A stretch of 64,000 nucleotides of DNA from IMG/VR virus record IMGVR_UViG_3300009703_000014, positions 2,236-66,235 of that record; one strand, written 5' to 3'. Positions 13,902 through 57,898 of this stretch are shown one piece after another. The notes under the pieces were generated by a model. The model was not told the DNA's origin. It ran no database searches and saw only the letters and a list, made by a program, of their open reading frames with translations. A program made the position numbers and the translations under genes. The DNA is from a virus. How positions within the stretch are numbered: position 1 is the first letter of the stretch; every line of letters begins with the position of its first letter.

Positions 13902-14366
13902 ATGCCAACTACTAATACAATTTTATTAGATACAGACTTAGATTCATTTGTGTCCACCTCTGCAGGGGGTGGCGCTATTTCAGGTGCCGTAGCAGATTTA
14001 TGGACTATAGGCAGTAGTGAAGAAGCTCGTCTTATACAAAAAATAGAAAACTTACCCATAGACTACATAATTACTTCTTTTATAGTAACATGCTCCGCGC
14101 TTTCGGGGGGAACTGGTTTCATCAGAATTTATCAAAAAGATAGAGAGTCTGAAGCGGCTTATTTAGAAATTCCTGCTGCACAAACAAATGGTTATTCAGT
14201 TAACCCTAACTTAATTATTTCAGAGGCGCAAGGTGAGCGTACTATAATTATTGATGCATATGATCCCAGCGATTCCGCCCATAATACTGTGCAAATTACT
14301 GGAAAGACTTATATTATAGCAAAACCTTATATAGCCGGAACAGCTAATACAGCTACTAGCTCGTAA
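13902..14366 (+). CDS. Hypothetical structural protein (154 aa)
   Basis: ORF track; GGAG RBS; tight packing in the tail cluster. Confidence 0.7.
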   Translation: MPTTNTILLDTDLDSFVSTSAGGGAISGAVADLWTIGSSEEARLIQKIENLPIDYIITSFIVTCSALSGGTGFIRIYQKDRESEAAYLEIPAAQTNGYSVNPNLIISEAQGERTIIIDAYDPSDSAHNTVQITGKTYIIAKPYIAGTANTATSS

Positions 14367-26236: not shown

Positions 26237-26443
26237 ATGGCAAAAAAAGAAAATACTTTAGAGACTAAATTAGAGAAGCTTACCTTAGAAAATAAGGGGC
26301 GTGTTGCTCAAGTAGAGCAGTGGAACACTAATATAGTACAATTAAAAGAGGAAATAAATAAAGCAAAAGAGGCACATGATTATACTAGGGGGCAGATAGA
26401 GCTCCTAACTCAGATGATTAGTGAGGCTGGTGACAATCAATAA
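26237..26443 (+). CDS. Small coiled-coil protein (68 aa)
   Basis: ORF track; heptad-rich; follows an AT-rich intergenic gap. Confidence 0.65.
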   Translation: MAKKENTLETKLEKLTLENKGRVAQVEQWNTNIVQLKEEINKAKEAHDYTRGQIELLTQMISEAGDNQ

Positions 26444-26711
26444 TTTAAAGTATATTTTTAAAAAGTTACTATACTTTTTAAATTATGCTTTAGTAGTGTA
26501 TATATTTTCTAAATTTACAAACGCTGATTCAGCTGAAATAAAAAAAATAAGAGCAAAAATTAAACAGCTTAGTGTAGAAAAAAAGCGTTTAGAAAGTAAT
26601 CTACACACCTTAAAAAGTAAAAAGGAGTTAAAGAGCATTGAAAAAGAAATTGAAAGAATGGTTCCTAAAGAAAAGATTGCTCTTTTCTCTGATTTGCTTA
26701 GTAAGCTTTAA
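26421..26711 (+). CDS. Membrane-anchored coiled-coil protein, possible spanin/lysis accessory (96 aa)
   Basis: N-terminal hydrophobic helix followed by coiled coil; lies upstream of the endolysin. Function is inference. Confidence 0.5.
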   Translation: MRLVTINNLKYIFKKLLYFLNYALVVYIFSKFTNADSAEIKKIRAKIKQLSVEKKRLESNLHTLKSKKELKSIEKEIERMVPKEKIALFSDLLSKL

Positions 26712-26997
26712 TGTGGCGCAGGAATGGGCAGATGACTCTACTATTGTATTTACAAAGGTAGAGTTTGATGCTCTTTTAGTAAAAATGCAGGACTGTGTGT
26801 CTACAAAATACTATTGGGAATCCCTGTCTCTACAGCAAGACTCTTTAATAAATTTGCAAGACTCCCTTATAGCTCAGTATGAATATAAGGATAACTTAGT
26901 GGCACCTTTTTATAAACAAAAGTGGTTCCATAATTTAATGTTTACTTTAACAGGAATGGTAATAAAAGACAAAATAGAGGAAGCAATTAATGACTAG
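26638..26997 (+). CDS. Exported/membrane protein, possible lysis accessory (119 aa)
   Basis: Signal-like N-terminus and hydrophobic C-terminal segment; overlaps the previous gene. Confidence 0.5.
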   Translation: MKKKLKEWFLKKRLLFSLICLVSFNVAQEWADDSTIVFTKVEFDALLVKMQDCVSTKYYWESLSLQQDSLINLQDSLIAQYEYKDNLVAPFYKQKWFHNLMFTLTGMVIKDKIEEAIND

Positions 26998-27256
26998 ATT
27001 TTCTGTAAATATTGACCCAATATCCAATACTACAAATCTTTCTGTGCAGGTAAATGATCATAAATTAAAAAAAACACATATACTGGATAAGGCGGCTAGT
27101 TCTTTAACTTCTGCAAAAGCATATGCAGACCAGTTTATAATAGGGGTGAGGCGTCAGATGGGTGACGAGCAGTCTTCAAAACTGTCCCCCTCCGTTTCCA
27201 AACCGGAGTGCGTGGGTTCGATTCCTACCACCCCTGCAAACAAGGTAAATATATAA
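26990..27256 (+). CDS. Hypothetical protein (88 aa); 3' third overlaps the tRNA(UCA)
   Basis: ORF track; GAGG RBS; its TAA overlaps the endolysin ATG. Confidence 0.5.
   Translation: MTRFSVNIDPISNTTNLSVQVNDHKLKKTHILDKAASSLTSAKAYADQFIIGVRRQMGDEQSSKLSPSVSKPECVGSIPTTPANKVNI
27142..27236 (+). tRNA. tRNA-Trp(UCA), opal-decoding, with atypical 26-nt variable region
   Basis: Acceptor AGGGGTG/CACCCCT plus G73 (A1-U72, G73, as in bacterial tRNA-Trp); D stem CGTC/GACG; anticodon arm GCAGT-CT[TCA]AA-ACTGT; T arm GTGGG-TTCGATT-CCTAC. Confidence 0.88.
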
Positions 27257-27858
27257 TGATAAAAATATTAAAAATTATAATGGATTTAATACGGGTTTTT
27301 TTTAAAGGGAAGCCTCTTGTATCTCATACCCCCCTTAAGATACAAGATATTTCTAAAGAGCTTTCTTGACACCCAACACGTACTTGAAGTAAGCGCGCCT
27401 TATCAAGTATTAAAAAGATTGTAGTACATCAAAGCCTTACTTCGTATAAAAACTCTTCGCTTTCAGCTATAAATAGCTACCACATTAAGCCCGGAAAGCA
27501 AAACCATATAAGCCCTAATGGGGCTCCTCATATTTGCTATCACTTTGGAATAGACGGTGACGGCAACACATTTCAATTAAATAATTTAAGTAGTACAGTG
27601 TGGCATTGTAAGGGACAAAATACAGCCGGCATAGGTATCTTAATATTGGGGGACTTTGACGGCCCCTCTTACACTGGGAAAGACGTAGAGCCTACAGAAG
27701 CCCAACTTAAAAGCCTTGGAGCCCTTATTAATAATTTGCTTTCAAGGGAAAATTTAGCTATATCTAAACAAGACACTTACGGGCATGCTGATTTTGGTAA
27801 GGACAATTGTCCAGGTACTGTCGTAAGCAACTTTATAGACAAATTTAAAAACACTTAG
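27256..27858 (+). CDS. Endolysin, N-acetylmuramoyl-L-alanine amidase (Amidase_2/T7-lysozyme type) (200 aa, 2 TGA=Trp)
   Basis: IVVHQS...YHFGIDGDG...WHCKGQN..GIGILILGDF...GHADFGKDNCPG zinc-amidase motifs; TGA at 27367 and 27385. Confidence 0.88.
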
Positions 27859-27869
27859 AGGATAATAAA

Positions 27870-28928
27870 ATGAATAAAATAGCATCTATGAATCTTGATG
27901 TAGTAGACTTTATCTTAAATGATGTAGAAAAACTGGCATCCGTAGTAAATGGTTTAACAGACAGCACAAAAACAGCACATATTCCCAGCTTTGAAGAGCA
28001 GCAGGATATGCCAGACAGAAATTTTGCTTTAATCTTATTAAGCAATCAGGCAGCCGACTTACATAAATTTGCTATGAACTCGGCTGATTTAGTAGAACTT
28101 AACTTAGCTTTCTTGTCTAATAATGTAGAGTCTCTTCCAGACGAAGTTATTAAGATTGCTGGGGCTAATTTAACTAAAGCCGCAAACGATTATAATGTGA
28201 GTATACCAGCAAACTTAGAAGAATTTTCTTCTAATGTATATGTCGATAACAGGCTTTTAACTACAGACATTAACGAGCTAAATTATGTAGTTAAGTGTGC
28301 GCAAGAGGGTGACGTAAATTTTGCTTGGGAAGGTGAGAAAAAGTATCCTTTAACCGATGCATCCACTGTTAAAACTGCGTCCGCTTACTTTGCGAAACAC
28401 CATCAAGCGATGGATATGGATAAAAAATTAGAATTTGTATTAAATACAGAACGTGCTGCTAAAAACTTTGGGGTAGATATAGACAATACTGCTATAGATA
28501 AATATGCTAGCTTGGATAGAAGCAGGTTTAACCCCATACTTCATGACCATATTAAAGTAAGGCAGTCTTATATTAAAGATGACGAAGATATAGCTATCTA
28601 CGACGACCTATATAATAAAATCGACGCCGCATCGCCTACTAAGGTAGCACAAGCTTTGAATATCATAGATAAGGAATTTGATTTGGAGCGTATGTACGGA
28701 AAGGGGATAGAGGATCCTTTAATGGCCTGTTTAGGATCTGTTAAAAGAGCTGGATTAAATATTGAAGGATCTATGATAACGCAAGATGATTTAAATGGCC
28801 TCGATAGCGGAGACTTAACAGTTATAGTTGGAAATGACGCGGTTAAAGCGCTTAAAGGGGATGAAGGGGTGCATGTATTAAATTCATTACCAACTCCTGT
28901 TAAACGTGAGGTTTTAGAACTTTTATAA
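27870..28928 (+). CDS. Hypothetical protein, possibly virion-internal (352 aa)
   Basis: ORF track; GAGG RBS; several KxAS motifs. Confidence 0.7.
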   Translation: MNKIASMNLDVVDFILNDVEKLASVVNGLTDSTKTAHIPSFEEQQDMPDRNFALILLSNQAADLHKFAMNSADLVELNLAFLSNNVESLPDEVIKIAGANLTKAANDYNVSIPANLEEFSSNVYVDNRLLTTDINELNYVVKCAQEGDVNFAWEGEKKYPLTDASTVKTASAYFAKHHQAMDMDKKLEFVLNTERAAKNFGVDIDNTAIDKYASLDRSRFNPILHDHIKVRQSYIKDDEDIAIYDDLYNKIDAASPTKVAQALNIIDKEFDLERMYGKGIEDPLMACLGSVKRAGLNIEGSMITQDDLNGLDSGDLTVIVGNDAVKALKGDEGVHVLNSLPTPVKREVLELL

Positions 28929-29470
28929 TGCGTTTCTTTTTAGCAAGTTTTTTATGCTCTATGCTTTTAGGGCAAACTTTAAATATAGAAACATATAACC
29001 ACACAGTAAAGGAAGGAGAGTCATTATCCAGTATTAGTGAGGGGTATGGAGTTAGTTGGGCATCTATTTATCACCTAAATGCCCACTTAATAGGAGTGGA
29101 TGCTGACCAAATAAAAGAGGGCCATACTTTAAATATTCCTTTAAATAGCTATTATACGGCGGAAGGGTACCATTTTGAGTTAAGAGCTTTTTTATGTTTA
29201 TTTGCGCTATTTATATTTCTTTGGAATATAAAACCTGTGTATAAACACGGAAGCGTTCATACCAAAACTATTATAGATAGACAAAGTAACAGCGCGCCTG
29301 CTAAGTCACGTGAAAACGAAAGTACACATGAGGTGGCCATTGAAGCGGGTTTAGGTAATACGTCTTGAAAAGCTATTGAAGCTAAGGACATTCAGTTACC
29401 TTCAGAGTCTGTGAAGTCTGGTTTAGACCAAGCAGCTTTAAAAGAAAAATTAAAAAAAATCAGGAAATAA
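28928..29470 (+). CDS. LysM-domain exported/membrane protein (180 aa, 1 TGA=Trp)
   Basis: HTVKEGESLSSISEGYGVSWASIYHLN...IKEGHTLNIP is a LysM motif; signal peptide and a TM helix. Confidence 0.8.
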
Positions 29471-29473
29471 CTT

Positions 29474-30460
29474 ATGAAAGGTTTAGATTGTGGTACAGGT
29501 AATTTTGTATGTGCGTCAGAGAAGGGAATTAATCTACAAAGGAACTCTTTTTTGACAATTGATAAAAGCACAACAACCACAAAGCAATTAAAATTATTGA
29601 GGGTTCCTTATGTAGAATTAGGGGATCAATTACACATAGTAGGTAAAAAGGCATTTGAGTATGCTCAAGTGTTTGGCAATGCAGAGCTTAAAAGACCTAT
29701 GTCTAAAGGGCTTTTAAATCCCACAGAGCAACACGCATTTCCTGTACTTAAAGTAATTATGCAAGAGTTGTTAGGCACTCCTAGTCAAGAAAATGAAGGG
29801 GTTGTTTATTGTGTCCCTGGGAAGCCTATAGACCAAGAAAGGGAAGTAGAATACCACCAAGACATCCTAAAAGATATTATTGAAAGTCTAGGTTTTAAAG
29901 CTAGAGCAATTAATGAAGCAGTCTCATTAGGTTTAGCGGGGTTAGCCGATGACGGGTTAACAGGGATTACGATTTCTATGGGAGCCGGCATGTGTAATAT
30001 TGCTATTATGTATGCGGGTATGTCTGCCTTACAGTTTAGTGTTGCCAAAGGCGGGGACTGGATTGATGAGAATGTAAGTAGGGATTGTGGTATATCTACC
30101 GCAAAAGCACAATACATCAAAGAAAGTGGAGATTATACCATAGACCCGGCATCACCTGTAGGTAGGTCTAGAGAACAGCAGGCTGTAAAAACTTATTATG
30201 AAGTACTGATTAGATACTTAATGGCTAATATAGCTAAACAGTTTGAATCAGAAGATATGCCTAATTTTCCAAACGAAGTGCCTATTGTTATAGGGGGCGG
30301 AACTTCTATGGTAAACGGGTTTATTGAGGTATTTAAAGAGCAATTTCAACAAAAACAATTTCCTCTAGAAATAAGTGATATACGACACGTAGAGGAGCCC
30401 TTAACGGCGGTATCTCGAGGATGTTTAGTGGATGCCCAACTTGAGGAGGAGGAGGGCTAA
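29474..30460 (+). CDS. Actin-like ATPase (ParM/MreB/FtsA superfamily) (328 aa)
   Basis: Phosphate-1 GLDCGTGN, connect AINEAV, phosphate-2 ISMGAGMCN and adenosine IGGGTS motifs. Confidence 0.85.
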   Translation: MKGLDCGTGNFVCASEKGINLQRNSFLTIDKSTTTTKQLKLLRVPYVELGDQLHIVGKKAFEYAQVFGNAELKRPMSKGLLNPTEQHAFPVLKVIMQELLGTPSQENEGVVYCVPGKPIDQEREVEYHQDILKDIIESLGFKARAINEAVSLGLAGLADDGLTGITISMGAGMCNIAIMYAGMSALQFSVAKGGDWIDENVSRDCGISTAKAQYIKESGDYTIDPASPVGRSREQQAVKTYYEVLIRYLMANIAKQFESEDMPNFPNEVPIVIGGGTSMVNGFIEVFKEQFQQKQFPLEISDIRHVEEPLTAVSRGCLVDAQLEEEEG

Positions 30461-30820
30461 ATGAGCGCTAAAGCAACTTTTGTATTTGAAAAACTAGCAG
30501 GCAGTAAAAAAAAGAACTTTATGAGTGAAGGTAAGAAGGATATTATTTCAGGGCTGGCTGCAGGAGCTGTCACTACTGGAGCTACTTTTCCTTTAGATAC
30601 TATGACTACCGCAGCTCAGTCAGGATATGCCGCTGATCTAAAAAAGAGTTTAGGCAAAACCTTAACTTTTAAAACCGTACTTAAAAACCCTAAGTTAATC
30701 CCTCACCTTTATAAAGGTATTCAGTATAAATGGTCAAAAACTATTCCAGGCACTGCTATATCTTTAGCAACCTATGCCGGTACTAGGCGATTCTTAGATA
30801 AGAAATTTCCTAAGCAGTAA
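30461..30820 (+). CDS. Single mitochondrial-carrier (Solcar)-like repeat membrane protein (119 aa)
   Basis: IISGLAAGAVTTGATFPLDTMTTAAQ and LYKGIQYKWSKTIPGTAISLATY match the odd- and even-helix patterns of SLC25 repeats. Confidence 0.65.
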   Translation: MSAKATFVFEKLAGSKKKNFMSEGKKDIISGLAAGAVTTGATFPLDTMTTAAQSGYAADLKKSLGKTLTFKTVLKNPKLIPHLYKGIQYKWSKTIPGTAISLATYAGTRRFLDKKFPKQ

Positions 30821-31305
30821 TGGATATTACAGACTTATTACAGAATGAAGATGTGGTGGAGCCGGAAACGCTTCACATGCTTTTTCCAAATTTAACTCAA
30901 ATGGAAAAGCAAAAGGTACTTGCTATTAAAGTAATACATAATAATAGATGTGCCTTTGAAGACATGGATGTATTTGAAAATATAGTCTTTGTTTTAAATG
31001 GAATAGACCCCAATGTTACTATCATGGAGGGTTCTACCCCTGAATTTATTTGGAAAGCTTTAGATACCATCAGACAAATCCACCCCAAAATTGAGTTTGC
31101 TGAAGAAGTCAAAGAATATATAAAAAGTATATTTTTGGACCAAGGGTACAAAGTGTTTCCACCTAAATCAGGCATAGATAGCCCCCTTTTAGAGCAAGTG
31201 GAGGATCGTGCATTACACGGTCCTTTTCCTTTAGAAGAAGATGATATAGGAATACAAGCCTTAAGATATTTAAAAACAATGGAATATATTAAAACAGGGG
31301 AATAA
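30820..31305 (+). CDS. Hypothetical protein (161 aa)
   Basis: ORF track; TAATG-coupled. Confidence 0.7.
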   Translation: MDITDLLQNEDVVEPETLHMLFPNLTQMEKQKVLAIKVIHNNRCAFEDMDVFENIVFVLNGIDPNVTIMEGSTPEFIWKALDTIRQIHPKIEFAEEVKEYIKSIFLDQGYKVFPPKSGIDSPLLEQVEDRALHGPFPLEEDDIGIQALRYLKTMEYIKTGE

Positions 31306-31307: not shown

Positions 31308-33182
31308 ATGCCAGTAAAGCATATTACAGAAGCAGAGTCCACTAGGGCACGTAGCACAAACTACCCGAACCCTTTTTTCGATTTAGCTAATAATTACATA
31401 CCTAAAAATATAAAAACTTTATTTAAATTTTGTAGAAGTTTCTTTTACACTAACGGATTTTTACGGAATGTAATTACGAAACTTACTGAGTATCCTATTA
31501 CGGACTTACTCTATTCAACAACTATAGACGAAGCTACACGAGATTTATACGATCAGGCCTTACACCGTAAACTAAAAATCAAGAGCCTTTTAATTGAAAT
31601 CGGGCTGGACTATTATACTTACGGTAACGCTTTTGTATCTACCCATATAAAAAGTAAACGATTCATTAAGTATCCTGATGGTCAAATGATCCCTATCGAC
31701 CAGGCCACTATTAAAGTAAAAAACTTTGAATTTTATGCATCTAAACAAGGTGTAAGTGATGTAAAAGTTGAGGTTGTAGACGAGCCTATTAAGTCCATTG
31801 ATAATTTTAAATTACTGAGATGGGCTCCAGAAAATATAGATATAGACTATAGCCCCATAACAGGCGACTCAATATATTACTATACTATTCCTTCTAAGAT
31901 AAAGGCGGGGATAGCTGCCGGAAATATAGCCATTTTGCGAGATATACCTCTAGTTTTCTTAGACTCTCTACGACAAAAAAAGCGTATTATACTCGATGAA
32001 AACAACTTGTTTCATTTTAAGCGTCCTACGCTTGCTGAAGACGACATGGGATGGGGAAAACCTTTAATTCTTCCAGCTTTAAAAGATATTTATTATTTAC
32101 AAACACTAAAGCGTGGAAATGAGGCCATTTCAAATGAGCACATAATTCCTAAAAAAGCGATCTACCCTGCTAATACCACAACGCTAGACCCATATACCCA
32201 AATGAATCTCGGTAAGTGAAAAGGTCAGATGGAACAGCAAATTAAAAAATGGAGACAAGACCCTAACCACATAGGAGTTTTTCCAATCCCTATTGGATAT
32301 CAAGAGTTAGGTGGAAACGGCAGAGCTTTGCTATTAACGCCAGAAATGAAATTTATTGAGGAGTCTATTATTAACAGTATGGGTGTTCCTTTAGAATTTA
32401 TTAAGGGAGGGGCTTCTTGGACGGGTTCTAGCATTTCTTTGAGAATTGTAGAAAATCATTTTTTAACATATAGGGAGTTTTTAACAGAATTTTTAAATCA
32501 TTTTGTAGTACATAAATTAGTACATTTATTAAACTACCCTAAAGTAGACGTACGTTTTAGTAAATTTAAAATGTCGGACGATGCCCAAGCTAAACAGCTA
32601 GCTATTAATTTAAACGCATCTGGCAAGATTTCAGACTCAAAATTACTAGACGAGTTTGGGTATAATTATGAGGAGGAGGCCACTGCTATCAAGCGTACGC
32701 GTTTAGACATGATGAATGATGCTATTTTGCAGTCTGAGAAAGACGCCGAAGCGCAAGGCAAGTCTCAAATAATTTTAAGTAAATACCAAACAAGAGCTCA
32801 AAAAGCGGGAGAAGATGAAGCTTTTAGATTAAAAGCAGAGATCTTTGAAAAAGAGCTTATGCAAGAAAATCAAGGAATACCTGAAGACCCCATTAAGCTT
32901 ATAGAAAAATATGCTTATGAGATACATGGGCTGGATCCTGTTAATCAGCAGAAAAAAATGGCTCAATTAATTAAAAAAGCTCCAATTACATACGGCCTTG
33001 TTTTGGAGAGATTGCAGCTTATACAAATGGAAGCAAACCAGGTTATGGCAGCTTCAGCAAGCATGGAAGAGCCTTCTTTAGACACAGCTCCTAACGAGAA
33101 AGGAGTAGGAAATAGAGAGGGAGATAAAGTTAAGTTGCGTGAAAAAGAAAAAACAAAAGGCCAAACAAGAGGTAGTGTTTAA
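31308..33182 (+). CDS. Portal protein (624 aa, 1 TGA=Trp)
   Basis: Portal-like blocks (LIEIGLDYYTYGNAF, LFHFKRP...WGKPLILP, IINSMGVP). The two ORF pieces join as MNLGK[W]KGQMEQQ. Confidence 0.8.
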
Positions 33183-34875: not shown

Positions 34876-35539
34876 TTATTTTTTTTATGGTTTTTTTTAT
34901 ATGTTTTTGTAAATTAAAATTTTTAGGCACTGAGGCACTTTTAATAAGGTTAGGCGCTGCCCATAAAGGCTGTAAGTTTGTATAATGAAAAGCAACCTTT
35001 TGGTGCTCTTCTTTATCTAAGGAGAATGCACTACAAGGGATAATGTGATCTACGTGCCAATCCCCATAATTTTTCCAGGACATGCCTGCTTCAAATTGCT
35101 TTTCTAGATATTCTTTTAGATAGGAAACTGAGCAACCTAACAAATAAACAGTTTTAGCCTCCTTTGTTTTCCCGTCAGCCTTTAAAGCTGTAGTAAGGCG
35201 GGAGCGCATTGTATTTTTTAATTTAAAAATGGGGTCTGAGGCCATTCTTTTATTATACCAAGTATTTCGCTTAGCTCTATATAAATCGCCTTTAATAGGG
35301 TCTCTTCTAATATCTTTATAACGCTTTCTATCCTTAGCCCTTATAACTTCTCGGTTAACCTCTCTATACTCCGCAGCTTTTAGAAGGGCCCTAGCTTTAT
35401 TTTCTTCATAATACTTAGCTAAGTACGACTTTAGACAAGGGGCACATGCGGATTTGTGTCCATCTAATGCGTTTTTATTTTTTGAAAAGTCTGCTAAGCG
35501 AAGTATTTTATGGCACCTGGTACATTGTTTTGTGTTCAT
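34868..35539 (-). CDS. HNH endonuclease with N-terminal zinc finger (223 aa)
   Basis: CxxC...CxxC N-terminus; WHVDHIIPC...HYTNLQPLWA..N HNH core. Confidence 0.85.
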   Translation of the reverse strand: MNTKQCTRCHKILRLADFSKNKNALDGHKSACAPCLKSYLAKYYEENKARALLKAAEYREVNREVIRAKDRKRYKDIRRDPIKGDLYRAKRNTWYNKRMASDPIFKLKNTMRSRLTTALKADGKTKEAKTVYLLGCSVSYLKEYLEKQFEAGMSWKNYGDWHVDHIIPCSAFSLDKEEHQKVAFHYTNLQPLWAAPNLIKSASVPKNFNLQKHIKKTIKKINE

Positions 35540-35611
35540 ACTTTAATATAACCATAATTTGGCGGCATTTCAAGGGTCTAAAAAATTCTTAATGTAAAAA
35601 AATAAGGACTT

Positions 35612-35635
35612 TAAAGCGCCCAAATGGGCGCTTTA
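35612..35635. terminator. Hairpin terminator downstream of the large structured element
   Basis: TAAAGCGCCCAAATGGGCGCTTTA perfect inverted repeat. Confidence 0.7.
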
Positions 35636-35664
35636 TTGTTTATAAATATGTGGCTAATTCGCAC

Positions 35665-36600
35665 AATTAAGAGTATTTTGTGTTGCACTTCGAGGGAAGG
35701 GAGGGGTCTCGTCGTGGCCTGGATTCAGAACCTTCTCGTTGTCGCTGTTGCAGCGGGCGTCCTGAGGCCTAGGAGAACCGGGTGATCGCGTCATCCTTTT
35801 GGAGGGGCGTCCTGTCTGGCATGCATCCAGAGCTGAGCTGTAGCTGGGGTGTCACCTGAGTCTCATCGGTTGTTGTCCGTTGGATCTTAGGGGCGGGCCA
35901 TGCCCAGTATGTTGGCGGCGCTCTGATCATGAGCTTGTATTTCGTGACCGTTCGGGGACCCTTGGGCTCCACCTGGGGTGAATCGCGTCAACATGTTCCC
36001 GTGTGGTTCATGTGTCATGGCTGGCGTAACCTTAGGCCCTGGAACCGGAGGACGCCTCCGTTGTTGCTCGCGAGATTCCTGACGATAAAAGTGGCTCCGT
36101 TCATATCACGGTGTTTCGGCATGACGTTTTCCGAGCCCGATCCGGGCTCTTGTGCTGATAGTGATATGTGGTGACCTTTAGTCAGGAAGACTGTGAGTGA
36201 CTCTAGTGGCGTCCTTTGTGGTCAGGACCGGTTGCGGTCGTTATGACACTACTCTTTGGTATTAATTCTTTAGAAACGGTACGTCTCTGGGTTTGCAAAA
36301 TCTGCGAACCGTTTAGCCATCTACCAACGTATATTGTTATCTATACAATAAATTCCCTACTCTAGCCTATGAGGCTCTTGGGGATTTATGTCCACTTACT
36401 AGGGGAATGAATAAAAGTCCTGCAGAATCAGTAAATTTCGGCTCGGGGGGCACCTTCATTCGGAAGGTGCTCAAAATGAGAGCATAGAACTTTACTGTAG
36501 TGCGTGGAGGTTTATTCATTCTCGAAGAAGTTTGTTGTCTTGTTCTTTGGTAACACACTTACAAAGTCGTATCGACTTTGAATCCTTATTTTATAAGGAA
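35665..36600 (-). ncRNA. Large structured non-coding element (candidate RT template RNA): AT-richer 5' domain plus about 590-nt GC-rich closed domain
   Basis: About 1.07-kb gene-free gap. Nested helices TCCTGAC/GTCAGGA, CATATCAC/GTGATATG, GAGCCCG/CGGGCTC, GAATGAATAAA/TTTATTCATTC; closing stem AAGAGTA+GTGT / ACAC+TACTCTT. Confidence 0.55.
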
Positions 36601-36618
36601 AGGGTCTATAGATATTAT

Positions 36619-36858
36619 TTAGAAAGTTTTCTCTTCTTGTAGTGAAAATTTTCTAAATAACGAGATTGCTTTTTTTAATTCTCTAAGACTTCGTCTTGTA
36701 CGCTTCGCAGCCGTTTTAGTCCCAATAATCGTAAACCGTAAGTTTTGATTTTTTGCTTCTAAGAACAGCTCCTCCATGTACGTGAAAACTTCTTGCCCTG
36801 AGCTAAATTGCTTTTCTCGATTTGTTTTGGTAGTATCCTTCTTTATATTATGTTCCAT
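36619..36858 (-). CDS. Small basic protein, Hc1/histone-H1-like type (79 aa)
   Basis: F...GTKTAAKRTRRSLRELKK..RK pattern resembling Hc1-like proteins. Confidence 0.55.
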   Translation of the reverse strand: MEHNIKKDTTKTNREKQFSSGQEVFTYMEELFLEAKNQNLRFTIIGTKTAAKRTRRSLRELKKAISLFRKFSLQEEKTF

Positions 36859-37568
36859 TGTTTACCTTTAGTAACTGTACTTCTCCAACACTTGTTGCAT
36901 GTCGAGCAGGATTTTTCGTGAGGTATCAGGCCGCTATCACAGGGACAGCTTTCTTTATATACTCTCGATTTTTCCATTTCTTTGTGTTTTTTTGATATGT
37001 TGAAGAAAATTGTGAAGTCTAAGCCTTTCTTTTTCCAGGATCCAAAGCTATCTGCTGTCCCTGTGTAGGCAAGGCCTATTTTGTCTAAGCCTTTTTGATT
37101 TTTAATATTTTTATAGTTGGCCATATTTTGGTCATCAAAGCTCAGTATTATTTTTGTTAGGTTTCTTAGGTTTTTTAAACGGTTAATATAAGGGAGCATG
37201 TGGGTCTGCGTTATATTTTTTGATATAATATAAAATTTAAAGTCAAGTAATTTTAGAAACTCTAGATGATGCTCTTTAAAATCACCGCTCCCATAAATTC
37301 TTACTGGGAGTTTGTCTAAGCGATGGTATGCTTTAGCTTTACTTCTTCTATATTTGCGATACTCTTTATTCAGAGCACTAGCAAACATTTTTGGGTTGTC
37401 AGTTGCCATAGTTTCATTACGTTCTATCTTAGGCTTATATGCCTTATATAATTTTTCCAAGTTGCCTACATAACAGTAGGCGCATATTTGGTCGCAGGTT
37501 GTAAACCTGTCAAAGTCTAAGGATAAAATCGTTTTTGAATTAGTGGTAAATATAGGAGGCGCTGACAT
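36843..37568 (-). CDS. Radical-SAM-like / Gp88-like Fe-S protein (241 aa)
   Basis: CDQICAYCY (CxxxCxxC), VRIYGSGDF, C-terminal CPCD...CSTCNKCW. Confidence 0.7.
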   Translation of the reverse strand: MSAPPIFTTNSKTILSLDFDRFTTCDQICAYCYVGNLEKLYKAYKPKIERNETMATDNPKMFASALNKEYRKYRRSKAKAYHRLDKLPVRIYGSGDFKEHHLEFLKLLDFKFYIISKNITQTHMLPYINRLKNLRNLTKIILSFDDQNMANYKNIKNQKGLDKIGLAYTGTADSFGSWKKKGLDFTIFFNISKKHKEMEKSRVYKESCPCDSGLIPHEKSCSTCNKCWRSTVTKGKQWNII

Positions 37569-37577
37569 AATAACACT

Positions 37578-37787
37578 CTACGTCCTTTTAGCAGGCCTAG
37601 CATCATACTTCTTATCCACCCCTTCCATATAATGCTCAAAGGTGATAGGCGATATGCTTGCAAGGCTTGAATTGCGTATTTTCTTGCTTATTGTGAGTGC
37701 GTCCATAATGTCTTCCGCTCGTACATACATCGTACGTCCACTACTTCTTTTTTTTCCAGTTTCCAGCACTATTTTGAAATGCTGCAT
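37578..37787 (-). CDS. Hypothetical protein (69 aa)
   Basis: ORF track; co-oriented. Confidence 0.6.
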   Translation of the reverse strand: MQHFKIVLETGKKRSSGRTMYVRAEDIMDALTISKKIRNSSLASISPITFEHYMEGVDKKYDARPAKRT

Positions 37788-37799
37788 AAAAGTCTCCGG

Positions 37800-37922
37800 T
37801 TATTTAGTTTTGCTAGGTTTTGGTGTAGTCATTGATTCAAGTTCTTCAGTTGCCATGATTTGGGCTATCTGTGATATAGCTATTATGGCGATTAAGCCTA
37901 TGAGTTTTCCTAGCTGTTCCAT
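37800..37922 (-). CDS. Small hydrophobic peptide (40 aa)
   Basis: MEQLGKLIGLIAIIAISQIAQ...; fills the gap between neighbouring genes. Confidence 0.45.
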   Translation of the reverse strand: MEQLGKLIGLIAIIAISQIAQIMATEELESMTTPKPSKTK

Positions 37923-37927
37923 GAAGT

Positions 37928-38425
37928 CTATGGTTGGTTTAATTTAATTTCTGTGTTGCAGTACATAAACAAAAATCGTTTACATTCGTTTAACAGAACT
38001 TTAATTTGTTTTTTTAGTCCACCAGGCGAGGTGGTTCCTAATTTTCGTGTTATTGTAACTTCTTTTTTTGTCCATGAGTATTCAAAATTTATCTTTTTTG
38101 ATATCATTTGCTTCTCAAAAGAGGCGGGGAAAGTTTGTTTTAGTTGTAGGTTTGGCCTGCCGTTAGACATGTCAAGCAACAACTGCATAAACCCCGTTTT
38201 TAATGTATCTTTTTTATTTAGTAAGAGAGTCAGATTATTTACGTCACTAAATTCAGTGAATATAAATAGAGCTCCTTCTGTCTCAACCCAGCCGAAAGGC
38301 AGGTAGCAAGACGTTTCTTTTAGCCTATCAAACTTTTTACTTAGCAGAACTAAGTTTTTAGCGTCATTTTGCCAAGCTGTGTCAAAAACTGGTTTCCTCT
38401 TACTGGGTGTAAGCTTTTTATCCAT
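37928..38425 (-). CDS. Hypothetical protein overlapping the RT 3' end (up to 165 aa)
   Basis: ORF track; 76-nt overlap with RT, start uncertain. Confidence 0.6.
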   Translation of the reverse strand: MDKKLTPSKRKPVFDTAWQNDAKNLVLLSKKFDRLKETSCYLPFGWVETEGALFIFTEFSDVNNLTLLLNKKDTLKTGFMQLLLDMSNGRPNLQLKQTFPASFEKQMISKKINFEYSWTKKEVTITRKLGTTSPGGLKKQIKVLLNECKRFLFMYCNTEIKLNQP

Positions 38426-39252
38426 TCGCAGTATCCTCTCATTTGCTGATATTCTTCTAGAGAAATTGTTTTTTGATCTCTATTGATGTTGTGTAATTTT
38501 GCTCTGAAGTTACGCCACTTCCATTTTGGAACGCTTAACTTCTTATTTACAACCACCCCTGTAATGCTCATGCGTTGGTTGGGTTTTCGTATCCGCGTCT
38601 TCTTAGGATTTACTTTCAGGTCTGCCATTTCTATAAATTCTGTGATAGGTTTTATATGTGTCCCCATTTTTTCACTTTTATCCGAGTGGCTAAAGGTGAG
38701 GTCATCAGCATATCTCGTGTAGAGAAGCCCATGGATTTCGCTGTATGTGCTTAAATTGTGATCTAGAGCTATACAGTATAAGTTTGCCAATGCCGGTGAT
38801 GTGGGGGATCCTTGTGGAAGCTGTCCCTTATAAGTAACCAATTTTACAAAAACTTTCAAATCCTCTCTTGTAAAAGTAAAAGAGGGCTCTATTTTCTTAT
38901 ACCTATTAAATAGGGAAAACCCCAATTTATAAACGTTTGCCGTTTTAATAGAATTGAAGAAGTTCGATAGGTCCATGCAGAGTAAAGCGTCTCGCCCTAA
39001 GTGCCTTAATGCTCCGTCTGCAACGCCAATGCCCGACACAAAACCTACAGCTGCGTCATGAGCACTGAAGTTATATAAAAAGGAATATAAAATTCTACTT
39101 TGTATCTCCTTTAATTCGTCTAGGGGGGCGTCTAGCCAACGCTTCTTTCCACTTTTTTTGCTGATGGGGTACGATAAGTAGTTTTTCCCTTGGTCGGAAA
39201 TTATGCCCATAGCCTCTTGTTTGCTTGTCTGTATGCATTCATAAAAATCCAT
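38350..39252 (-). CDS. Retron-type reverse transcriptase (300 aa)
   Basis: ISKKSGKKR..AP...LK.IQ, HDAAVGF, GALRH (NAxxH-like region X), DLSNFF, LPQGSPTSP, YTRYADDLTFS, ITGVVVN (VTG-like region Y); AGGAG RBS. Confidence 0.92.
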   Translation of the reverse strand: MDFYECIQTSKQEAMGIISDQGKNYLSYPISKKSGKKRWLDAPLDELKEIQSRILYSFLYNFSAHDAAVGFVSGIGVADGALRHLGRDALLCMDLSNFFNSIKTANVYKLGFSLFNRYKKIEPSFTFTREDLKVFVKLVTYKGQLPQGSPTSPALANLYCIALDHNLSTYSEIHGLLYTRYADDLTFSHSDKSEKMGTHIKPITEFIEMADLKVNPKKTRIRKPNQRMSITGVVVNKKLSVPKWKWRNFRAKLHNINRDQKTISLEEYQQMRGYCEWIKSLHPVRGNQFLTQLGKMTLKT

Positions 39253-39269
39253 AAAAACTCCTTTTTTTT

Positions 39270-39550
39270 AATTACAATCATACTACTAGGCCAGCTTCTC
39301 GGAAGGCGTCCGCTTCCGAGAGTTGCCGTGTTGTTGTTTCGTGTTGTCCCACACGAAGTATTTAGTATTATCTTAAGAAAAGCGAAGCGCCTTTCGTAGA
39401 CTTTGTTTTTATAACGTAGTCGTATTAGTCTATAACTGTACTAAACAGTAATCTTTTAATATGATTGATTACGGTTATTTTAGGTACTATGCCAGACGAA
39501 TCGTTCTGGGTACCGTATTATATAATACAGTGCGTACTACAGTTAGTTTT
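39270..39550 (-). ncRNA. Structured ncRNA upstream of RT (msr-msd-like)
   Basis: Hairpins TCTCGGAAG/CTTCCGAGA, TTCGTGT/ACACGAA, GAAAGGCG/CGCTTTTC, GGTAC-CCAGA/TCTGG-GTACC; inverted repeat CAATCATA (39275-39282) / TATGATTG (39460-39467). Confidence 0.65.
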
Positions 39551-39554
39551 TTTG

Positions 39555-41090
39555 TTACACTACTGAAAAAATAATTTCAGCTACTTTGTCAGCGGAAGAC
39601 TGTCTTATATCGTCTAACTTGCTAATCTTGTCCGAAAACTCGTTAATGGCGCAATCAGTATTATAATCCACATCAACCAGAACAGAGTGTACTATTACAT
39701 TTTTTTGCTTCTTCCAGGAAATGAAATCATATAACCAACTTTTCCTGACTGCGGAGTTTCCATCCGTAATAAACACAATGTCCGCTTTTTTAAATTCTTT
39801 GTGGTCGTTTATTGTGTCTTTGGCGAGATCTAGCGGTGGCTCGAATTGGGTACCGCCGCTTGCGAAAAACTCCGCCATGTCTAAAACCTCTGATACATTA
39901 TAGGCATCAGATTTTAGAAAGTTGTTGGTGTGAAGCATGTGCTTGGGTGAGGCATCGAAGTGAATAACGTGCAAGCTTCTGTTTTCAGCTCTAGCTATTT
40001 CTAGCAAACCCATGGCTACTCCTTTAGCCCATATTTCAGGCTCTCCGTGCATACTTCCACTACTATCAATACACACTACAATGGGACCTTTTGCCTTTTT
40101 TTCCTTACCAGCATACTTATATTGTAATAAGTTACTTTCCACATAATTCTTTTTGAACGATGTTTTTAGCAGAGGGTGCGACAGCTTTGACATCTCAGTC
40201 GGAATCAGCTTTCCTATGTCCTTCCCAAGTTCTATATCATAAATGCTATTTACACCTTTTGATATTTTGTTCTTGAAAGTACTAAGGGCTAAAGACTTAT
40301 AGCGGCCCATTAAAGCAGCTATTTCCTTTAACTTTTTGGAAGTATTCAGGGTTTCCAATAATTTTAGTTTTTCTTGATACCCGCTTTTTTGATAGTTAGG
40401 GTCCTGCTCTAGCCCCCAGTTAGCTATCATCTCTGAAGTTTCCTGGGTTTTGGAAATTGCCTTATCTAGCATCCTGTTTATCTGTCGTTTTTCTTTCTTC
40501 TCTACGACATTTAAAGTGTTTAGAGTATCCTCGAGGTGTTTTTGAGCGTCCTCTAAACTTATCTGTTCTTGGGATTTTCCTTCCCCAGTCCCGTTGTTCT
40601 CCTTTTCTGCATCACCTCCTGCAGCTTGTTCCTTGTCGGCAGCATTCTCTGCGGCACTCTCTAGGTTTTTAAGCGCTTCATCGAACTTGTCCTTAAGGTC
40701 TTTAACCAAATCCTTAACCTGTTCCCCAACTACTTCGGTACCCACGGCAGCATTTAGCTTGTCAAGCCTAGTCATTCCTCTTAGTTCCTTATATTGAGGG
40801 CTGTCCATAACGGCATCCATCACCTGGCTATTTAAACTATATTCGTAAGCTATATCTTTGTCGTCGAATTTTTCGGGACTATACTTATATAAGCTATCGA
40901 AAACGTCTTGGTGGAGATGCTCGAACTGTGGGTACATATCTGTGCCGGACATGTAAGTGGCGGCTATTTTTGGATTTTTTAGTAGAAGCTCTTTGAAAGC
41001 GTGTATGTCGAAATTGTCATACTTCACGCTATACTTCTCGGATTTTATTCGTTTTAGAATACTTTTTGCTTTTTCTGACAATGTTTTCAT
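39555..41090 (-). CDS. vWA-domain protein, ViaA/CoxE-like (511 aa)
   Basis: MIDAS IDSSGSM, GGTQFEPPL, IVFITDG. Confidence 0.88.
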   Translation of the reverse strand: MKTLSEKAKSILKRIKSEKYSVKYDNFDIHAFKELLLKNPKIAATYMSGTDMYPQFEHLHQDVFDSLYKYSPEKFDDKDIAYEYSLNSQVMDAVMDSPQYKELRGMTRLDKLNAAVGTEVVGEQVKDLVKDLKDKFDEALKNLESAAENAADKEQAAGGDAEKENNGTGEGKSQEQISLEDAQKHLEDTLNTLNVVEKKEKRQINRMLDKAISKTQETSEMIANWGLEQDPNYQKSGYQEKLKLLETLNTSKKLKEIAALMGRYKSLALSTFKNKISKGVNSIYDIELGKDIGKLIPTEMSKLSHPLLKTSFKKNYVESNLLQYKYAGKEKKAKGPIVVCIDSSGSMHGEPEIWAKGVAMGLLEIARAENRSLHVIHFDASPKHMLHTNNFLKSDAYNVSEVLDMAEFFASGGTQFEPPLDLAKDTINDHKEFKKADIVFITDGNSAVRKSWLYDFISWKKQKNVIVHSVLVDVDYNTDCAINEFSDKISKLDDIRQSSADKVAEIIFSVV

Positions 41091-41099
41091 ATTACTCCT

Positions 41100-42233
41100 T
41101 TAAGTAAAGCTCACGCCGCAAGCTTCGTTATATACTTCTGTAAGATACTGGTCTATTTTTGATTCTAAAGCTCTTACTTCTTTAGTATCTCGACCCTTTT
41201 CTTTTATGCTCAAATAATAAGAATTCATCTTTTTCTTCGCATCTTTTAATTTTACAGCTACCTCTACACCTTTTTTAAGGCGGTTAGCATCGTTATTTTC
41301 TATACTCATTACAGAGTCATATAAATCTTGAGCGTCGTCGAATAATTCCATAATTTTATTCTTTTCAGGATTTATCAGATCTAGTATAGCTGAGTAAACA
41401 TACTTAGCTTCGTCAGGATCTGACCACATTACGTGCTGTAAAATGTCTAAGTCACCTTCTAAGACGGTATCTCTTTTTTGGTAGTAAGCTTCTGCTTTCA
41501 ATAAGTTGATACAGCCCTTATAAGATCTATCTGAAACTTTGATACCTTTGTCATTTAGACTAGTCTTTAGGTTAGCAATTATTTCTATTATGTCTTTAGA
41601 AACTGTCACTTTTTTCACAGCTTTTCTTATAGAGAGGATGTCCTCTAAGCTGATCAATGGAGCATTTTTTATGGGCTCACTTTGCATCATTTTAACGAAG
41701 TTAGAAGACTCTTTGATTGGTTTAACCATGTACTTTAAGGTAAATCTGTCTAACATCGCTTCCAAGCCATCCCCTTCTTCGGGTAACTCATTAGAAGCCC
41801 CCACGAGGGTTAATAAGGGTATATTCACTGGTTTGCCGTCGTTAAAGAAAATCCGTTCATTCAGAATGGTTAGCAGGAAGTTTAAGACCCCTGAATTGCC
41901 TTTCCAAGTTTCGTCAATAAAGGCTATATCGGCCTCCGGTAACTTACCTGTGGTATTTCTTAAAAACTTGTCTGACTCTAAACCCTTTAGAGAGTATGGG
42001 CCTGCCAATTCCTCTGGCGTTGAGTATGCCGTTAAAAGCCAGCTGAAGTAGTTGCTTTTATCTATCAATTTTGCCCAGCTATTCACTAAGAGGGACTTTC
42101 CTACCCCTGGAGGGCCTAAGTATAATATATTGTTACCTGAAATAACTCCGAGAGTTAATCCATGTATCTCATCTGCCCTCTCTACGAAGTAGCTATTGAG
42201 TGTTTTTTCTATTTTTTGAAGTTTATCATGCAT
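41100..42233 (-). CDS. MoxR/RavA-type AAA+ ATPase (377 aa)
   Basis: GPPGVGKS Walker A, FIDETWK Walker B, GASNELP, LDRF; adjacent to vWA partner. Confidence 0.88.
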   Translation of the reverse strand: MHDKLQKIEKTLNSYFVERADEIHGLTLGVISGNNILYLGPPGVGKSLLVNSWAKLIDKSNYFSWLLTAYSTPEELAGPYSLKGLESDKFLRNTTGKLPEADIAFIDETWKGNSGVLNFLLTILNERIFFNDGKPVNIPLLTLVGASNELPEEGDGLEAMLDRFTLKYMVKPIKESSNFVKMMQSEPIKNAPLISLEDILSIRKAVKKVTVSKDIIEIIANLKTSLNDKGIKVSDRSYKGCINLLKAEAYYQKRDTVLEGDLDILQHVMWSDPDEAKYVYSAILDLINPEKNKIMELFDDAQDLYDSVMSIENNDANRLKKGVEVAVKLKDAKKKMNSYYLSIKEKGRDTKEVRALESKIDQYLTEVYNEACGVSFT

Positions 42234-48900: not shown

Positions 48901-49022
48901 TCATTACAGCAGCCTCTCAAGGACAATACTCTAACTTTAAGGGAAAAGACCCTATTCCCGCATACTTATATGGGGACGACTTTGGTAAAAAATCCGACCC
49001 GTCTAAGGGACACTTTTATTAA
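42948..49022 (+). CDS. Multisubunit-type RNA polymerase, fused beta-beta' polypeptide (2024 aa, 4 TGA=Trp)
   Basis: beta motifs (TPESGRVG, GNRASTAGRM, GYNFED-like GFNFEDG, GDKLSGRYGNK, NPHGVPARMNVGQ) and beta' motifs (GGLFDPEITGG, NRAPSLH, catalytic NADFDGD, TQLTMQTFH) in one frame; TGA at 43446, 45837, 46107, 47466. Confidence 0.9.
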
Positions 49023-49034
49023 CCACCTCTTAAT

Positions 49035-49712
49035 ATGTTTAATGACATAGATGTTGATGCTTATAGCGAGCAATTTAGCAAAGAAGGTTTTGTTTCAATA
49101 CCAGACATTTTAAATAAAGATACTAGTATTAGGCTTTTAAGAAGTTTTTCAGAGATACCGTGAAATAGTAAATTTATTAGTTTGTTTGGCGAAGACCATG
49201 TGCCCTCTACCATGGTAGAACGCATACCTGAAGGGTGTATTATAGAAAAAGCTGAAAAAGATTTTTCTTTCTACTTTGATTTTTTTGAGCCTGAAAAAGG
49301 ATTAGGGCTATACGAGGTTACGGATATTTTAAATAACTTTAAACAGAGCGATTTTATGTTAAAAACTGTACAGCAAATTACAGGAGATACCCACCTTAAA
49401 AACTGCTATGCTGCTTTAACACGCTACACACCCAACAGCTTCTTAAAAATACACGACGATAACTTTAGTGGGGATTATGGAGAACGTAAACTGGCCTTCG
49501 TTTTACACCTTACACCAGAATGACGGGCCGACTGGGGCGGATTTACTTTATTTGTAGATAAAGACGATTACTGTAAAATTAATAGGACCGTGGTACCTTC
49601 TTTTAATACTTTGCACTTATTCAAAGTGGATCAAAATAGCACTCACTGTGTTACTCCCGTAGCCCCCTTTGCTAAAAATAGATATAGCCTATCAGGCTTT
49701 TTACATGTTTAA
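49035..49712 (+). CDS. 2OG-Fe(II) oxygenase, prolyl-hydroxylase type (225 aa, 2 TGA=Trp)
   Basis: HDD...RKLAFVLHLTPE[W]RADWGG...HCVTPV...RYSLSGF; the TGA falls on the conserved WxxxWGG motif. Confidence 0.85.
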
Positions 49713-49715
49713 CAT

Positions 49716-50249: not shown

Positions 50250-50268
50250 GAAGTACCGGAGGAATATA

Positions 50269-56760: not shown

Positions 56761-56764
56761 ATTG

Positions 56765-56852: not shown

Positions 56853-56865
56853 ATTTAATCCTATT

Positions 56866-57897: not shown

Positions 57898-57898
57898 T

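Follow-up and report, generated by a model that had tools for sequence, protein, structure and literature searches.

A single-repeat homologue of the mitochondrial carriers encoded by bacteriophages

Mitochondrial carriers (SLC25, or mitochondrial carrier family, MCF) are held to be a eukaryotic invention that arose by triplication of a two-helix unit, no free-standing form of which is known to have been described. The canonical proteins are encoded in the eukaryotic nucleus and consist of three fused repeats in about 300 residues. Mito_carr homologues outside eukaryotic nuclei include LncP from Legionella and VMC1 from Mimivirus, which are full three-repeat proteins taken from eukaryotes and act in or on a eukaryotic host. 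An analogous case with an unrelated fold is SemiSWEET, a unit from the prokaryotic world, oligomers of which have the fold that a single fused chain (SWEET) forms in eukaryotes; its oligomers are solved and transport has been shown. Here we describe a gene that encodes only one carrier repeat. It lies at positions 30461..30820 (plus strand) of a 64,000-nucleotide stretch of viral DNA, positions 2,236 to 66,235 of the IMG/VR record IMGVR_UViG_3300009703_000014, which is called the window in the following, and its product of 119 residues (P0001) is referred to as the window protein.

According to a 2026 preprint no prokaryotic SLC25 homologue was known and the origin of the family is an enigma; the same preprint restates the repeat-triplication hypothesis and proposes CysZ and YihY as bacterial relatives of the ADP/ATP carrier, the CysZ link consisting of structural similarity with a circular permutation and one motif (bioRxiv 10.64898/2026.03.31.715626). 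The phage family described here bears on the same question, a relative of the SLC25 fold in the prokaryotic world, but whereas the CysZ/YihY link is structural, this family is found by plain sequence search above the curated threshold of Pfam and consists of one repeat in the literal sense. The literature, our coverage of which is incomplete, yielded no account of carriers that are encoded by phages or have a single repeat, so that an earlier mention elsewhere is possible. Database entries in the form of small Mito_carr clusters in the ESM Atlas exist without interpretation.

The first-pass annotation of this DNA, which was made from the letters alone, had described the open reading frame (ORF) as a stand-alone single carrier repeat. 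The ORF is found at exactly these positions, and every residue quoted for it is present in the translation: IISGLAAGAVTTGATFPLDTMTTAAQ at residues 28-53, LYKG at 83-86, KTIPGTAISLATY at 93-105 and RRFL at 109-112. It begins with ATG, ends with TAA, is flanked by TAA stop codons on both sides and contains no in-frame TGA that the recoding of this phage could read through. With a length of 119 residues, the restriction to one repeat is therefore correct.

Pfam Mito_carr (PF00153) is matched by the protein with an expectation value (E) of 1.4e-10 and 41.2 bits at a gathering score of 22.3, and the alignment places residues 26-115 on profile positions 7-95 of 96 (89 of the 96 model positions). An exhaustive phmmer search with the window protein against 1.84 billion cluster representatives yielded 111 matches at E <= 1e-3. 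About two dozen of them are short one-repeat proteins, and the remainder are canonical carriers. These canonical three-repeat proteins are matched directly, with E from 1e-8 to 1e-3 and mostly on all three repeats, and the best identity of a canonical repeat to the window protein is about 30%. The single-sequence phmmer search of the PDB sequences gave no match for the protein, and the profile of the one-repeat family was needed to reach the solved carriers. With this profile E values range from 2.7e-16 to 7.5e-12 over the solved carriers, including UCP1 (8g8w, 2.7e-16), the bovine ADP/ATP carrier (1okc, 2.5e-15), UCP2 (1.4e-14) and the yeast GTP/GDP carrier (4.5e-12), and are as low as about 1e-28 for named eukaryotic carriers. 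The alignment to UCP1 agrees motif for motif, the consensus PLDT..T.aQ lying over PLDTAKVRLQ and lYkG...K..K..P over LYSGLPAGLQRQ. In PHROGs no family matching the protein was found. The product of the ORF is a genuine homologue of one carrier repeat (SLC25/Mito_carr), and at the domain level it belongs to the Mito_carr repeat family with a score above the curated gathering threshold. The search against PF00153 proposed in the first-pass annotation thus bears out its central claim, as do the direct phmmer matches and the profile matches to solved carriers.

Four parts can be distinguished in the protein. The N-terminal peptide (residues 1-14, MSAKATFVFEKLAG; 30461..30502, plus strand like all parts of the gene) is an amphipathic helix, for which the monomer model has a helix at residues 3-14. 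It is followed by the odd-numbered helix (residues 27-53; 30539..30619) with G31xxxG35, the kink and signature P44-L-D46-T47, T49 and the glutamine brace Q53. A lysine-rich and poorly conserved loop (residues 54-82; 30620..30706), the equivalent of the matrix loop and helix of canonical carriers, leads to the even-numbered helix (residues 83-115; 30707..30805), which contains L-Y84-K-G86, K90, K93, P96 and Y105-A106-G-T-R109.

The motifs were counted in 19 family members and 104 canonical repeats, all aligned to one hidden Markov model (HMM). The features that pack and kink the helices are kept as in carriers, namely GxxxG, the proline kink, the glutamine brace, [YWF][KR]G, the even-helix proline and the Tyr/Phe brace. 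In the odd helix G31, P44, D46 and Q53 occur in 19/19 members and G35 in 16/19; in the even helix G86 and P96 are found in all 19, Y/F105 in 18, Y84 in 17 and K/R109 in 16. Different from canonical carriers are the charges of the gates. The lysine or arginine of the matrix network at position 49 is present in 95/104 canonical repeats and in 0/19 family members, the window protein having threonine there (PLDTMT). The acid of the cytoplasmic network at position 106 occurs in 77/104 canonical repeats and likewise in none of the 19; the family has glycine or alanine instead, and the canonical [FY][DE]xx[KR] of positions 105-109 reads YAGTR in the window protein. With 0/19 at both positions the loss is a fixed character of the family and not the erosion of one gene, which extends to the whole family the earlier observation that each salt-bridge motif is short of one charge. 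Other residues are more constant than in carriers: K90 is fixed in the family (19/19) and variable in canonical carriers, and K/R93 is found in 19/19 members as compared to 45/104 canonical repeats. T47 is present in 17/19 members.

The mean hydropathy of the helices is in the canonical range (family versus canonical, 1.02 versus 1.10 for the odd and 0.14 versus 0.35 for the even helix). Across the family the loop that separates Q53 from L83 may have as few as 11 or as many as 52 residues, which indicates that the canonical matrix helix is dispensable in the phage proteins.

The likeness to the canonical carriers (1okc, 8g8w) thus comprises homology at the level of the repeat, the packing motifs, the helix hydropathy and the position of K93 over cavity arginines of UCP1. 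As a whole protein the product lies outside the SLC25 definition, which includes a tripartite architecture, two complete salt-bridge signatures and a eukaryotic mitochondrial setting, although its mode of action may well be that of a carrier. Instead of three tandem repeats of about 100 residues with six transmembrane (TM) helices per chain there is one repeat in 119 residues, and both P-x-[DE]-x-x-[KR] and [FY][DE]xx[KR] lack one charge. SLC25 proteins are nuclear-encoded and reside in the mitochondrial inner membrane of eukaryotes, whereas this gene is located on a viral record together with phage structural and lysis genes, and the host of its phage bears peptidoglycan. The phage proteins differ further by the invariant K90, the dispensable matrix helix and the additional N-terminal peptide. 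LncP and VMC1 share with them the occurrence outside eukaryotic nuclei, but for the one-repeat family there is no identifiable donor, and its phages carry LysM and amidase lysis genes.

The monomer model of the window protein is a helical hairpin with helices at residues 3-14, 23-64, 70-83 and 87-115 and a predicted local distance difference test (pLDDT) score of 68.4; within the loop short helices are modelled at 70-75 and 77-83 (pLDDT about 58-69). Structure searches with this model gave a best E of 0.95 with Foldseek on PDB and a best Z of 7.0 with VIA wide, the matches of the latter being ATP-synthase c subunits, Esx proteins and designed bundles. Since a single hairpin at pLDDT 68 is not discriminating, this outcome speaks neither for nor against a carrier fold.

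The assembly was predicted for three copies only. With the family alignment the prediction reached interaction scores from aligned errors (ipSAE) of 0.75, 0.75 and 0.76, as compared to 0.00 for the best of 3 controls, with 183-185 contacts, a contact agreement of at least 94% between runs and a partner pLDDT of at least 77. The ipSAE pass mark is reached by 20/30 proteins solved as one-chain pairs and by 1/23 solved as single chains, counts which are only a rough guide here since the calibration used two copies and the present prediction three copies and a custom family alignment. In the model each odd helix (19-56) lies against the even helix (85-118) of the adjacent copy and a closed ring results, so that the odd/even helix ring of the canonical carriers is reproduced in the predicted contacts. 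At the axis the three copies are in contact through residues 47-54 (50:50, 54:54, 50:53, 47:53), by which the matrix-equivalent side is modelled closed. The contacts fit a predicted six-helix ring of three-fold (C3) symmetry with the geometry of the carrier barrel. Between copies the contacts 46:89 and 49:90 place D46 beside residue 89 and T49 beside K90 of the neighbour. The proximity of D46 to the invariant K90 of the adjacent copy suggests that gating is rewired rather than absent. The three-copy prediction, which may draw on solved carriers, lends support to the homotrimer that had been proposed from the sequence, and the ungated channel that had been considered along with it does not agree with a model closed at residues 47-54.

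Our preferred reading, which we regard as having about an even chance of being right, is that the gene encodes an accessory, late-made, homotrimeric carrier-like device in the cytoplasmic membrane of the host. Three copies would assemble round a three-fold axis to a six-helix barrel, as canonical carriers do from three fused repeats. The canonical salt-bridge gates would be re-wired, in that a pairing of two invariant residues, D46 and the K90 of the next subunit, takes the place of the D...K network. Three K93 residues would line a symmetric central site of positive charge, into which a small or symmetric anion would fit, whereas the binding sites of canonical carriers are asymmetric; the phage homotrimer would be perfectly symmetric. 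K93 aligns with an arginine in each of the three even helices of UCP1, the nucleotide- and anion-binding triplet, and with contact point I (R79) of the ADP/ATP carrier. Being level with these arginines, K93 would give a cationic central site. The protein would be made late, its gene being located in a TGA-recoded structural or late block between an actin-like gene and the portal gene, and would alter how permeable the cytoplasmic membrane of the host is to solutes or ions. It is this position, together with the absence of the gene from the same site in a close relative (see below), that leads us to regard the device as accessory and late-made. Membrane insertion in a bacterium, the anionic substrate, the timing and the benefit to the phage are what we infer, while the C3 trimer is predicted. 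As in the SemiSWEET/SWEET analogy, a unit of half or a third of the size would oligomerise to the fold of a eukaryotic fused chain, but oligomer and transport are in the case of the phage protein predictions.

Several observations weigh against the homotrimeric carrier. The monomer model is only moderately confident, and the structure searches with it return generic helical hairpins. The solved carriers hold the same packing of their three repeats within one chain, and the pass of the three-copy prediction may therefore reflect recall of these structures. By the measure of a standard TM predictor the helices are too polar, with a maximum Kyte-Doolittle value over 19 residues of 1.14 at a threshold of 1.6. 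The matrix loop and helix, which are integral to canonical carriers, are down to 11 residues in some members. N-terminal tail, loop and C-terminal tail are all rich in lysine, so that no clear topology for a bacterial inner membrane can be derived from the positive-inside rule. Finally, the N-terminal peptide is shared with other phage proteins and points to a targeting step which a homotrimer leaves unexplained.

The one-repeat family consists of about 25 short clusters with members of 105-150 residues, plus fused forms. This answers the proposed search for one-repeat homologues in related phages, which are found in several phage lineages. The sequences come from contigs of uncultured, mostly marine, tailed phages in Tara Oceans and other metagenomes; for some clusters 22-25 contigs are known, and for one the index lists 80 blocks. 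The small ESM Atlas clusters have 85-125 residues, and one of them is partly labelled Uroviricota. One locus was found in IMG/VR, whereas tblastn of 50,697 deposited phage genomes gave no family member, and a pattern scan with the family alignment gave no copy in the 185,579 prokaryotic species genomes of GTDB. Three proteins of about 160 residues labelled 'SLC25 phosphate transporter' (P0188, P0214, P0244) are fragments of eukaryotic carriers and not family members. The fused forms P0005 and P0233 (284-291 residues) have a low-complexity insertion after the N-terminal peptide, which in P0233 (L006:6460-7335, 291 residues) is rich in Ser, Thr, Lys and Gly and extends over about 170 residues up to the repeat. 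In P0011 and P0067 about 150 residues without a family match are added at the C-terminus.

At least 8 independent metagenome contigs carry orthologues of the carrier gene at syntenic positions. The only unsaturated pair, from loci L005 and L002, shows 8 synonymous and 3 non-synonymous differences, which corresponds to a ratio of non-synonymous to synonymous substitution rates (dN/dS) of about 0.09. In the saturated pairs the proportion of non-synonymous differences (pN) is 0.21-0.36 and that of synonymous differences (pS) is 0.65-0.74, and pN is well under pS in all pairs. These comparisons indicate a real gene under purifying selection across the family.

The loci fall into four groups. Group A comprises the window, L002, L003, L005, L006, L013, L014, L015 and L016 and has the order Amidase_2, DUF6582, LysM-type, Volactin-family actin, carrier, a gene for about 160 residues and portal, which is kept at a carrier identity as low as 32%. 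The adjacency of actin-like and carrier gene is seen in L002, L003, L005, L006, L013, L014 and L015. The phages of group B (L009, L010, L012) are different ones, which have S21 and a terminase of the GpA type but no actin gene beside the carrier. Group C (L017) comprises contigs of up to 0.2-1 Mb, again without an adjacent actin gene, where the 578-residue protein encoded downstream is not a portal. L011 represents group D. A fixed position next to the portal gene is ruled out by L017, and one next to the actin-like gene by L009, L010, L011, L012 and L017. In the close relative L018 (G001:C1, 204 kb) the syntenic site has the actin-like gene, a gene for 159 residues and the portal gene, but the place of the carrier is taken by 213 nucleotides without a carrier ORF. 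The carrier gene is therefore considered accessory. A weak and divergent carrier-like ORF (family profile E 1e-5, Pfam E 0.054, Pro44 replaced by Ala) is found elsewhere in L018; it encodes 189 residues, lies at about 161.5 kb and has a different, DUF3008-like N-terminus.

Many of the family members start with the motif M-[SDN]-K-A-x-x-[VIA]-F-x-K-[LY]-[AG] of 12 residues. In L017 the same peptide occurs on the carrier, on a SNF2/helicase-like protein of 466 residues and on a protein of at least 106 residues (7001-7345, 10893-12293 and 14026-14346). In G001:C1 it is found on a DUF5662 protein, a Gly-zipper-like protein of 205 residues and a protein of 104 residues (38967-39446, 159877-160494 and 164465-164779, minus strand). 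The conservation begins at the ATG and extends over about 12 codons, synonymous changes included, while the upstream DNA is unrelated, which argues for a signal at the peptide level. The T4 internal proteins are diverse proteins which have only a capsid-targeting sequence in common (PMC3012670). The phage proteins resemble them in that a short conserved N-terminal peptide is all that unrelated proteins of one phage have in common; different is the tag itself, which has no sequence identity to that of T4, and its cleavage and packaging are putative. The 12-residue peptide may be a targeting or packaging tag.

The tag is the basis of the first of the rival explanations, in which the protein is packaged in the virion and ejected. 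The N-terminal peptide would then be a capsid-targeting tag, and the weakly hydrophobic hairpin would be carried in the head, be ejected with the DNA and only then insert into the membrane of the new host, where the protein, possibly still trimeric, could assist the entry of the DNA, keep out other phages or change the energetics of the membrane when infection begins. We consider this unlikely but a serious alternative. It would account for the same peptide on non-homologous proteins in L017 and G001:C1, for a signal that begins at the ATG and spans about 12 codons under differing upstream DNA, and for the location of the gene among the late structural genes, with the portal gene the second one after it; the helices are also polar enough to remain soluble. 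On the other side, a protease cleavage motif cannot be recognised, the residue after the F being E, N, M, Q or T, and some members begin with another peptide (MLxKLGF...) or lack one altogether (P0105, P0067). Although the tag is common to unrelated proteins across the related phages, the carrier is the only tagged protein within the 73-kb record, and the tag could equally direct proteins to the membrane or to another compartment. Another reading is one without any carrier-like oligomer, according to which a soluble or peripheral helical hairpin has kept the carrier motifs by descent and serves some other role. The plain hairpin of the monomer model with its pLDDT of 68 and generic matches, the very low hydrophobicity and the unconserved loop are in line with it. 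Yet the conserved residues are just those that make the barrel (GxxxG, proline kink, glutamine brace, [YF][KR]G, even-helix proline and tyrosine brace), the helices of canonical carriers are equally polar, and the trimer prediction passed against its controls, so we rate this reading as the least probable of those discussed here.

The neighbouring genes suggest two further roles. Small size, presumed late expression, two helices and a charged C-terminus, together with a position near overlapping spanin-like ORFs (26421-26997) and three genes after that of the Amidase_2 endolysin (27256-27858), would suit a holin- or pinholin-like protein for lysis timing, which depolarises the membrane and by the collapse of the proton-motive force triggers the nearby endolysin. 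Both canonical gates are short of one charge, as expected for a leak, and carriers of the UCP type are proton leaks. Holins are characterised by at least two strongly hydrophobic TM domains beside an endolysin, whereas no segment of this protein reaches 1.6; its hydrophobicity is far under that of holin TM domains, with the even helix at about -0.15. There is no PHROG holin or lysis match, and better holin-like ORFs with two TM segments are present at 60407-60640 and 55666-55896 (both minus strand). The modelled trimer is closed at its axis, the carrier is unlinked to lysis genes in other lineages, and it is gone from its site in a relative that retains the lysis genes (L018). A function in lysis is therefore improbable in our estimate. 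Even less probable appears a membrane adaptor that tethers or nucleates the filament of the Volactin-family actin-like protein, like the small partner genes that follow ParM-type actins. The actin-like gene is located directly upstream in every group A locus, with stop and start codons that abut or overlap across members 32-41% identical, and the amphipathic N-terminal helix with its basic run may resemble actin-binding peptides. But the carrier occurs without an adjacent actin gene in five loci (L009, L010, L011, L012, L017), L018 keeps the actin-like gene without a carrier at that site, and the N-terminal peptide is also found on proteins unrelated to actin.

For the origin of the family a tree of 98 columns was calculated from the 19 members and 104 canonical repeats. 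The family forms one clade, with a support of 97 in the Shimodaira-Hasegawa-like approximate likelihood ratio test (SH-aLRT), into which one canonical repeat with a long branch is drawn (P0032 repeat 1; the other repeats of P0032 have canonical motifs). Among the 104 canonical repeats no supported sister of the family was found in the tree. The repeat with the best score against the family HMM is repeat 3 in 20, repeat 1 in 12 and repeat 2 in 9 canonical carriers; this set was chosen by similarity to the query, so that the repeat of origin gets no clear answer. The identity of about 30% to the best canonical repeats is similar to the deepest divergences within the family. Lack of a sister, lack of affinity to repeat 1, 2 or 3 and low identity together make a recent capture from a specific eukaryotic subfamily unlikely. 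Both an old capture with subsequent spread among phages and a pre-eukaryotic relic are compatible with these results. In our opinion the balance leans to old capture or reduction, because fast-evolving phage genes would hardly keep a similarity at Pfam level for about 2 billion years. That the family descends from the one-repeat stage of the carrier fold before triplication, with the phages preserving a working example, is accordingly a doubtful proposition, for which we see a small chance. A weaker version is that the protein results from secondary reduction and may still work as a homotrimeric carrier in a bacterial membrane.

The window belongs to a virus record which is one contig of 73,364 bp with an even GC content over the region (0.34-0.39). 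The record carries genes for a portal, baseplate J/wedge and tail-fibre proteins, an Amidase_2 endolysin and a LysM protein, which confirms that the carrier is phage-encoded, and further for a reverse transcriptase, a MoxR-VWA pair, an RNA polymerase with fused beta and beta' parts and the portal already named. Vibrio phage D69 and Salmonella phage Arash, which are phages of 180-190 kb, have portals that share 31% identity with it. The relative L018 (DAOQAF010000001.1, 204,271 bp) is also TGA-recoded and has a terminal overlap of 50 bp, which suggests a complete genome of about 204 kb; in view of this relative with its overlapping ends the 73-kb record is probably a fragment of a jumbo myovirus. 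The L018 contig was binned in a metagenome-assembled genome of a 'Bacteroidales bacterium', which is the sole, weak hint to a host.

Directly upstream of the carrier gene lies the gene for the actin-like ATPase of the Volactin family (29474..30460, plus strand; 328 residues; PF25216 at E 1.9e-78), which is in the same frame and separated from it by only a TAA. The name of this Pfam family is derived from a cell-shape actin of Haloferax. The last codons of the actin-like gene double as a purine-rich, Shine-Dalgarno-like run (GAGGAGGAGGAGGG, 30443..30456, plus strand) at 5-18 nucleotides before the ATG, which is the putative ribosome-binding site of the carrier gene. Downstream a conserved acidic all-alpha protein of 161 residues is encoded (30820..31305, plus strand), the start codon of which overlaps the carrier stop codon by one base (TAATG); it is modelled by AlphaFold2 (AF2) with pLDDT 85.9 and the only protein that it matches (E 6e-06) is from an uncultured Caudovirales phage and is itself uncharacterised. 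The portal protein follows (31308..33182, plus strand; 624 residues), with phrog_16240 matching both halves and an in-frame TGA at 32217-32219 that is read as tryptophan, the position being W in 8/8 relatives. The upstream genes of the same late block (27256..29470, plus strand) encode the Amidase_2 endolysin (listed ORF 27208-27858, likely ATG at 27256), the DUF6582 protein (27870-28928) and the LysM protein with a hydrophobic segment (28928-29470, one TGA); L013 and L014 have these genes in the same order. Just before tRNA and endolysin two overlapping ORFs (26421-26997, plus strand) look by eye like a spanin pair, one with an N-terminal hydrophobic segment and coiled-coil-like K/E-rich sequence, the other with a signal-like N-terminus with Cys.

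All 66 in-frame TGA codons are located in 29 plus-strand genes, as opposed to 0 in 23 minus-strand genes, and none of the 52 genes ends in TGA. The recoded plus-strand blocks cover 1-33182 and 42948-51012 of the window. Of 19 TGA positions aligned with relatives 16 correspond to tryptophan, and in the remaining 3 cases three relatives have one and the same in-frame stop; L006, L013, L014 and G001:C1 share at least one such stop. The carrier gene is without TGA and reads identically under either code, but its operon mates (endolysin, LysM and portal) contain TGA, and it is thereby assigned to the recoded block, which is presumably late. The only candidate for the decoder of these codons in the late genes is presumed to be a tRNA of 96 nucleotides with anticodon UCA (27142..27237, plus strand), which was found by ARAGORN and scores 42.2 bits (E 3.7e-07) against the Rfam tRNA-Sec model with its gathering threshold of 47. 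It has a long extra arm, and the tRNA-Sec-like score stays under the Rfam threshold.

Other genes of the window lie apart from the carrier. An ORF of 2024 residues (42948-49022, plus strand) with 4 TGA read as tryptophan fuses beta-like and beta'-like parts of a multisubunit RNA polymerase (Rpb2 domains 3 and 6; Rpb1 domains 1, 2 and 5). The gene for a reverse transcriptase (RVT_1, phrog_2825) adjoins those for a MoxR-type AAA+ ATPase and a VWA protein (38350-39252 and 39555-42233, both minus strand); no template/variable repeat pair was found within 35400-39700, and so there is no evident diversity-generating retroelement. A TROVE/Ro-like RNA-binding protein (DUF2828 and DUF7788, phrog_850) is encoded at 62300-63685 (minus strand) in a block without TGA, and three tRNA genes (Asn, Lys, Met) are located near it at 56764-59272 (minus strand).

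The phage family represents a naturally occurring, conserved and free-standing carrier unit encoded by phages of bacteria. If it is a relic, the 'eukaryote-only' SLC25 family would have arisen from a homotrimeric protein with two TM helices of the prokaryotic and viral world; if it results from secondary reduction and still works as a homotrimeric carrier, one repeat would be sufficient. Relic or reduction alike, the family makes the one-repeat stage of carriers testable in the laboratory, including the trimerisation of one repeat to a working barrel, the contribution of the salt-bridge gates, their re-wiring by D46 and K90, and the substrate of a symmetric site. To the biology of phages it adds a new kind of membrane protein, which is possibly a delivered one.

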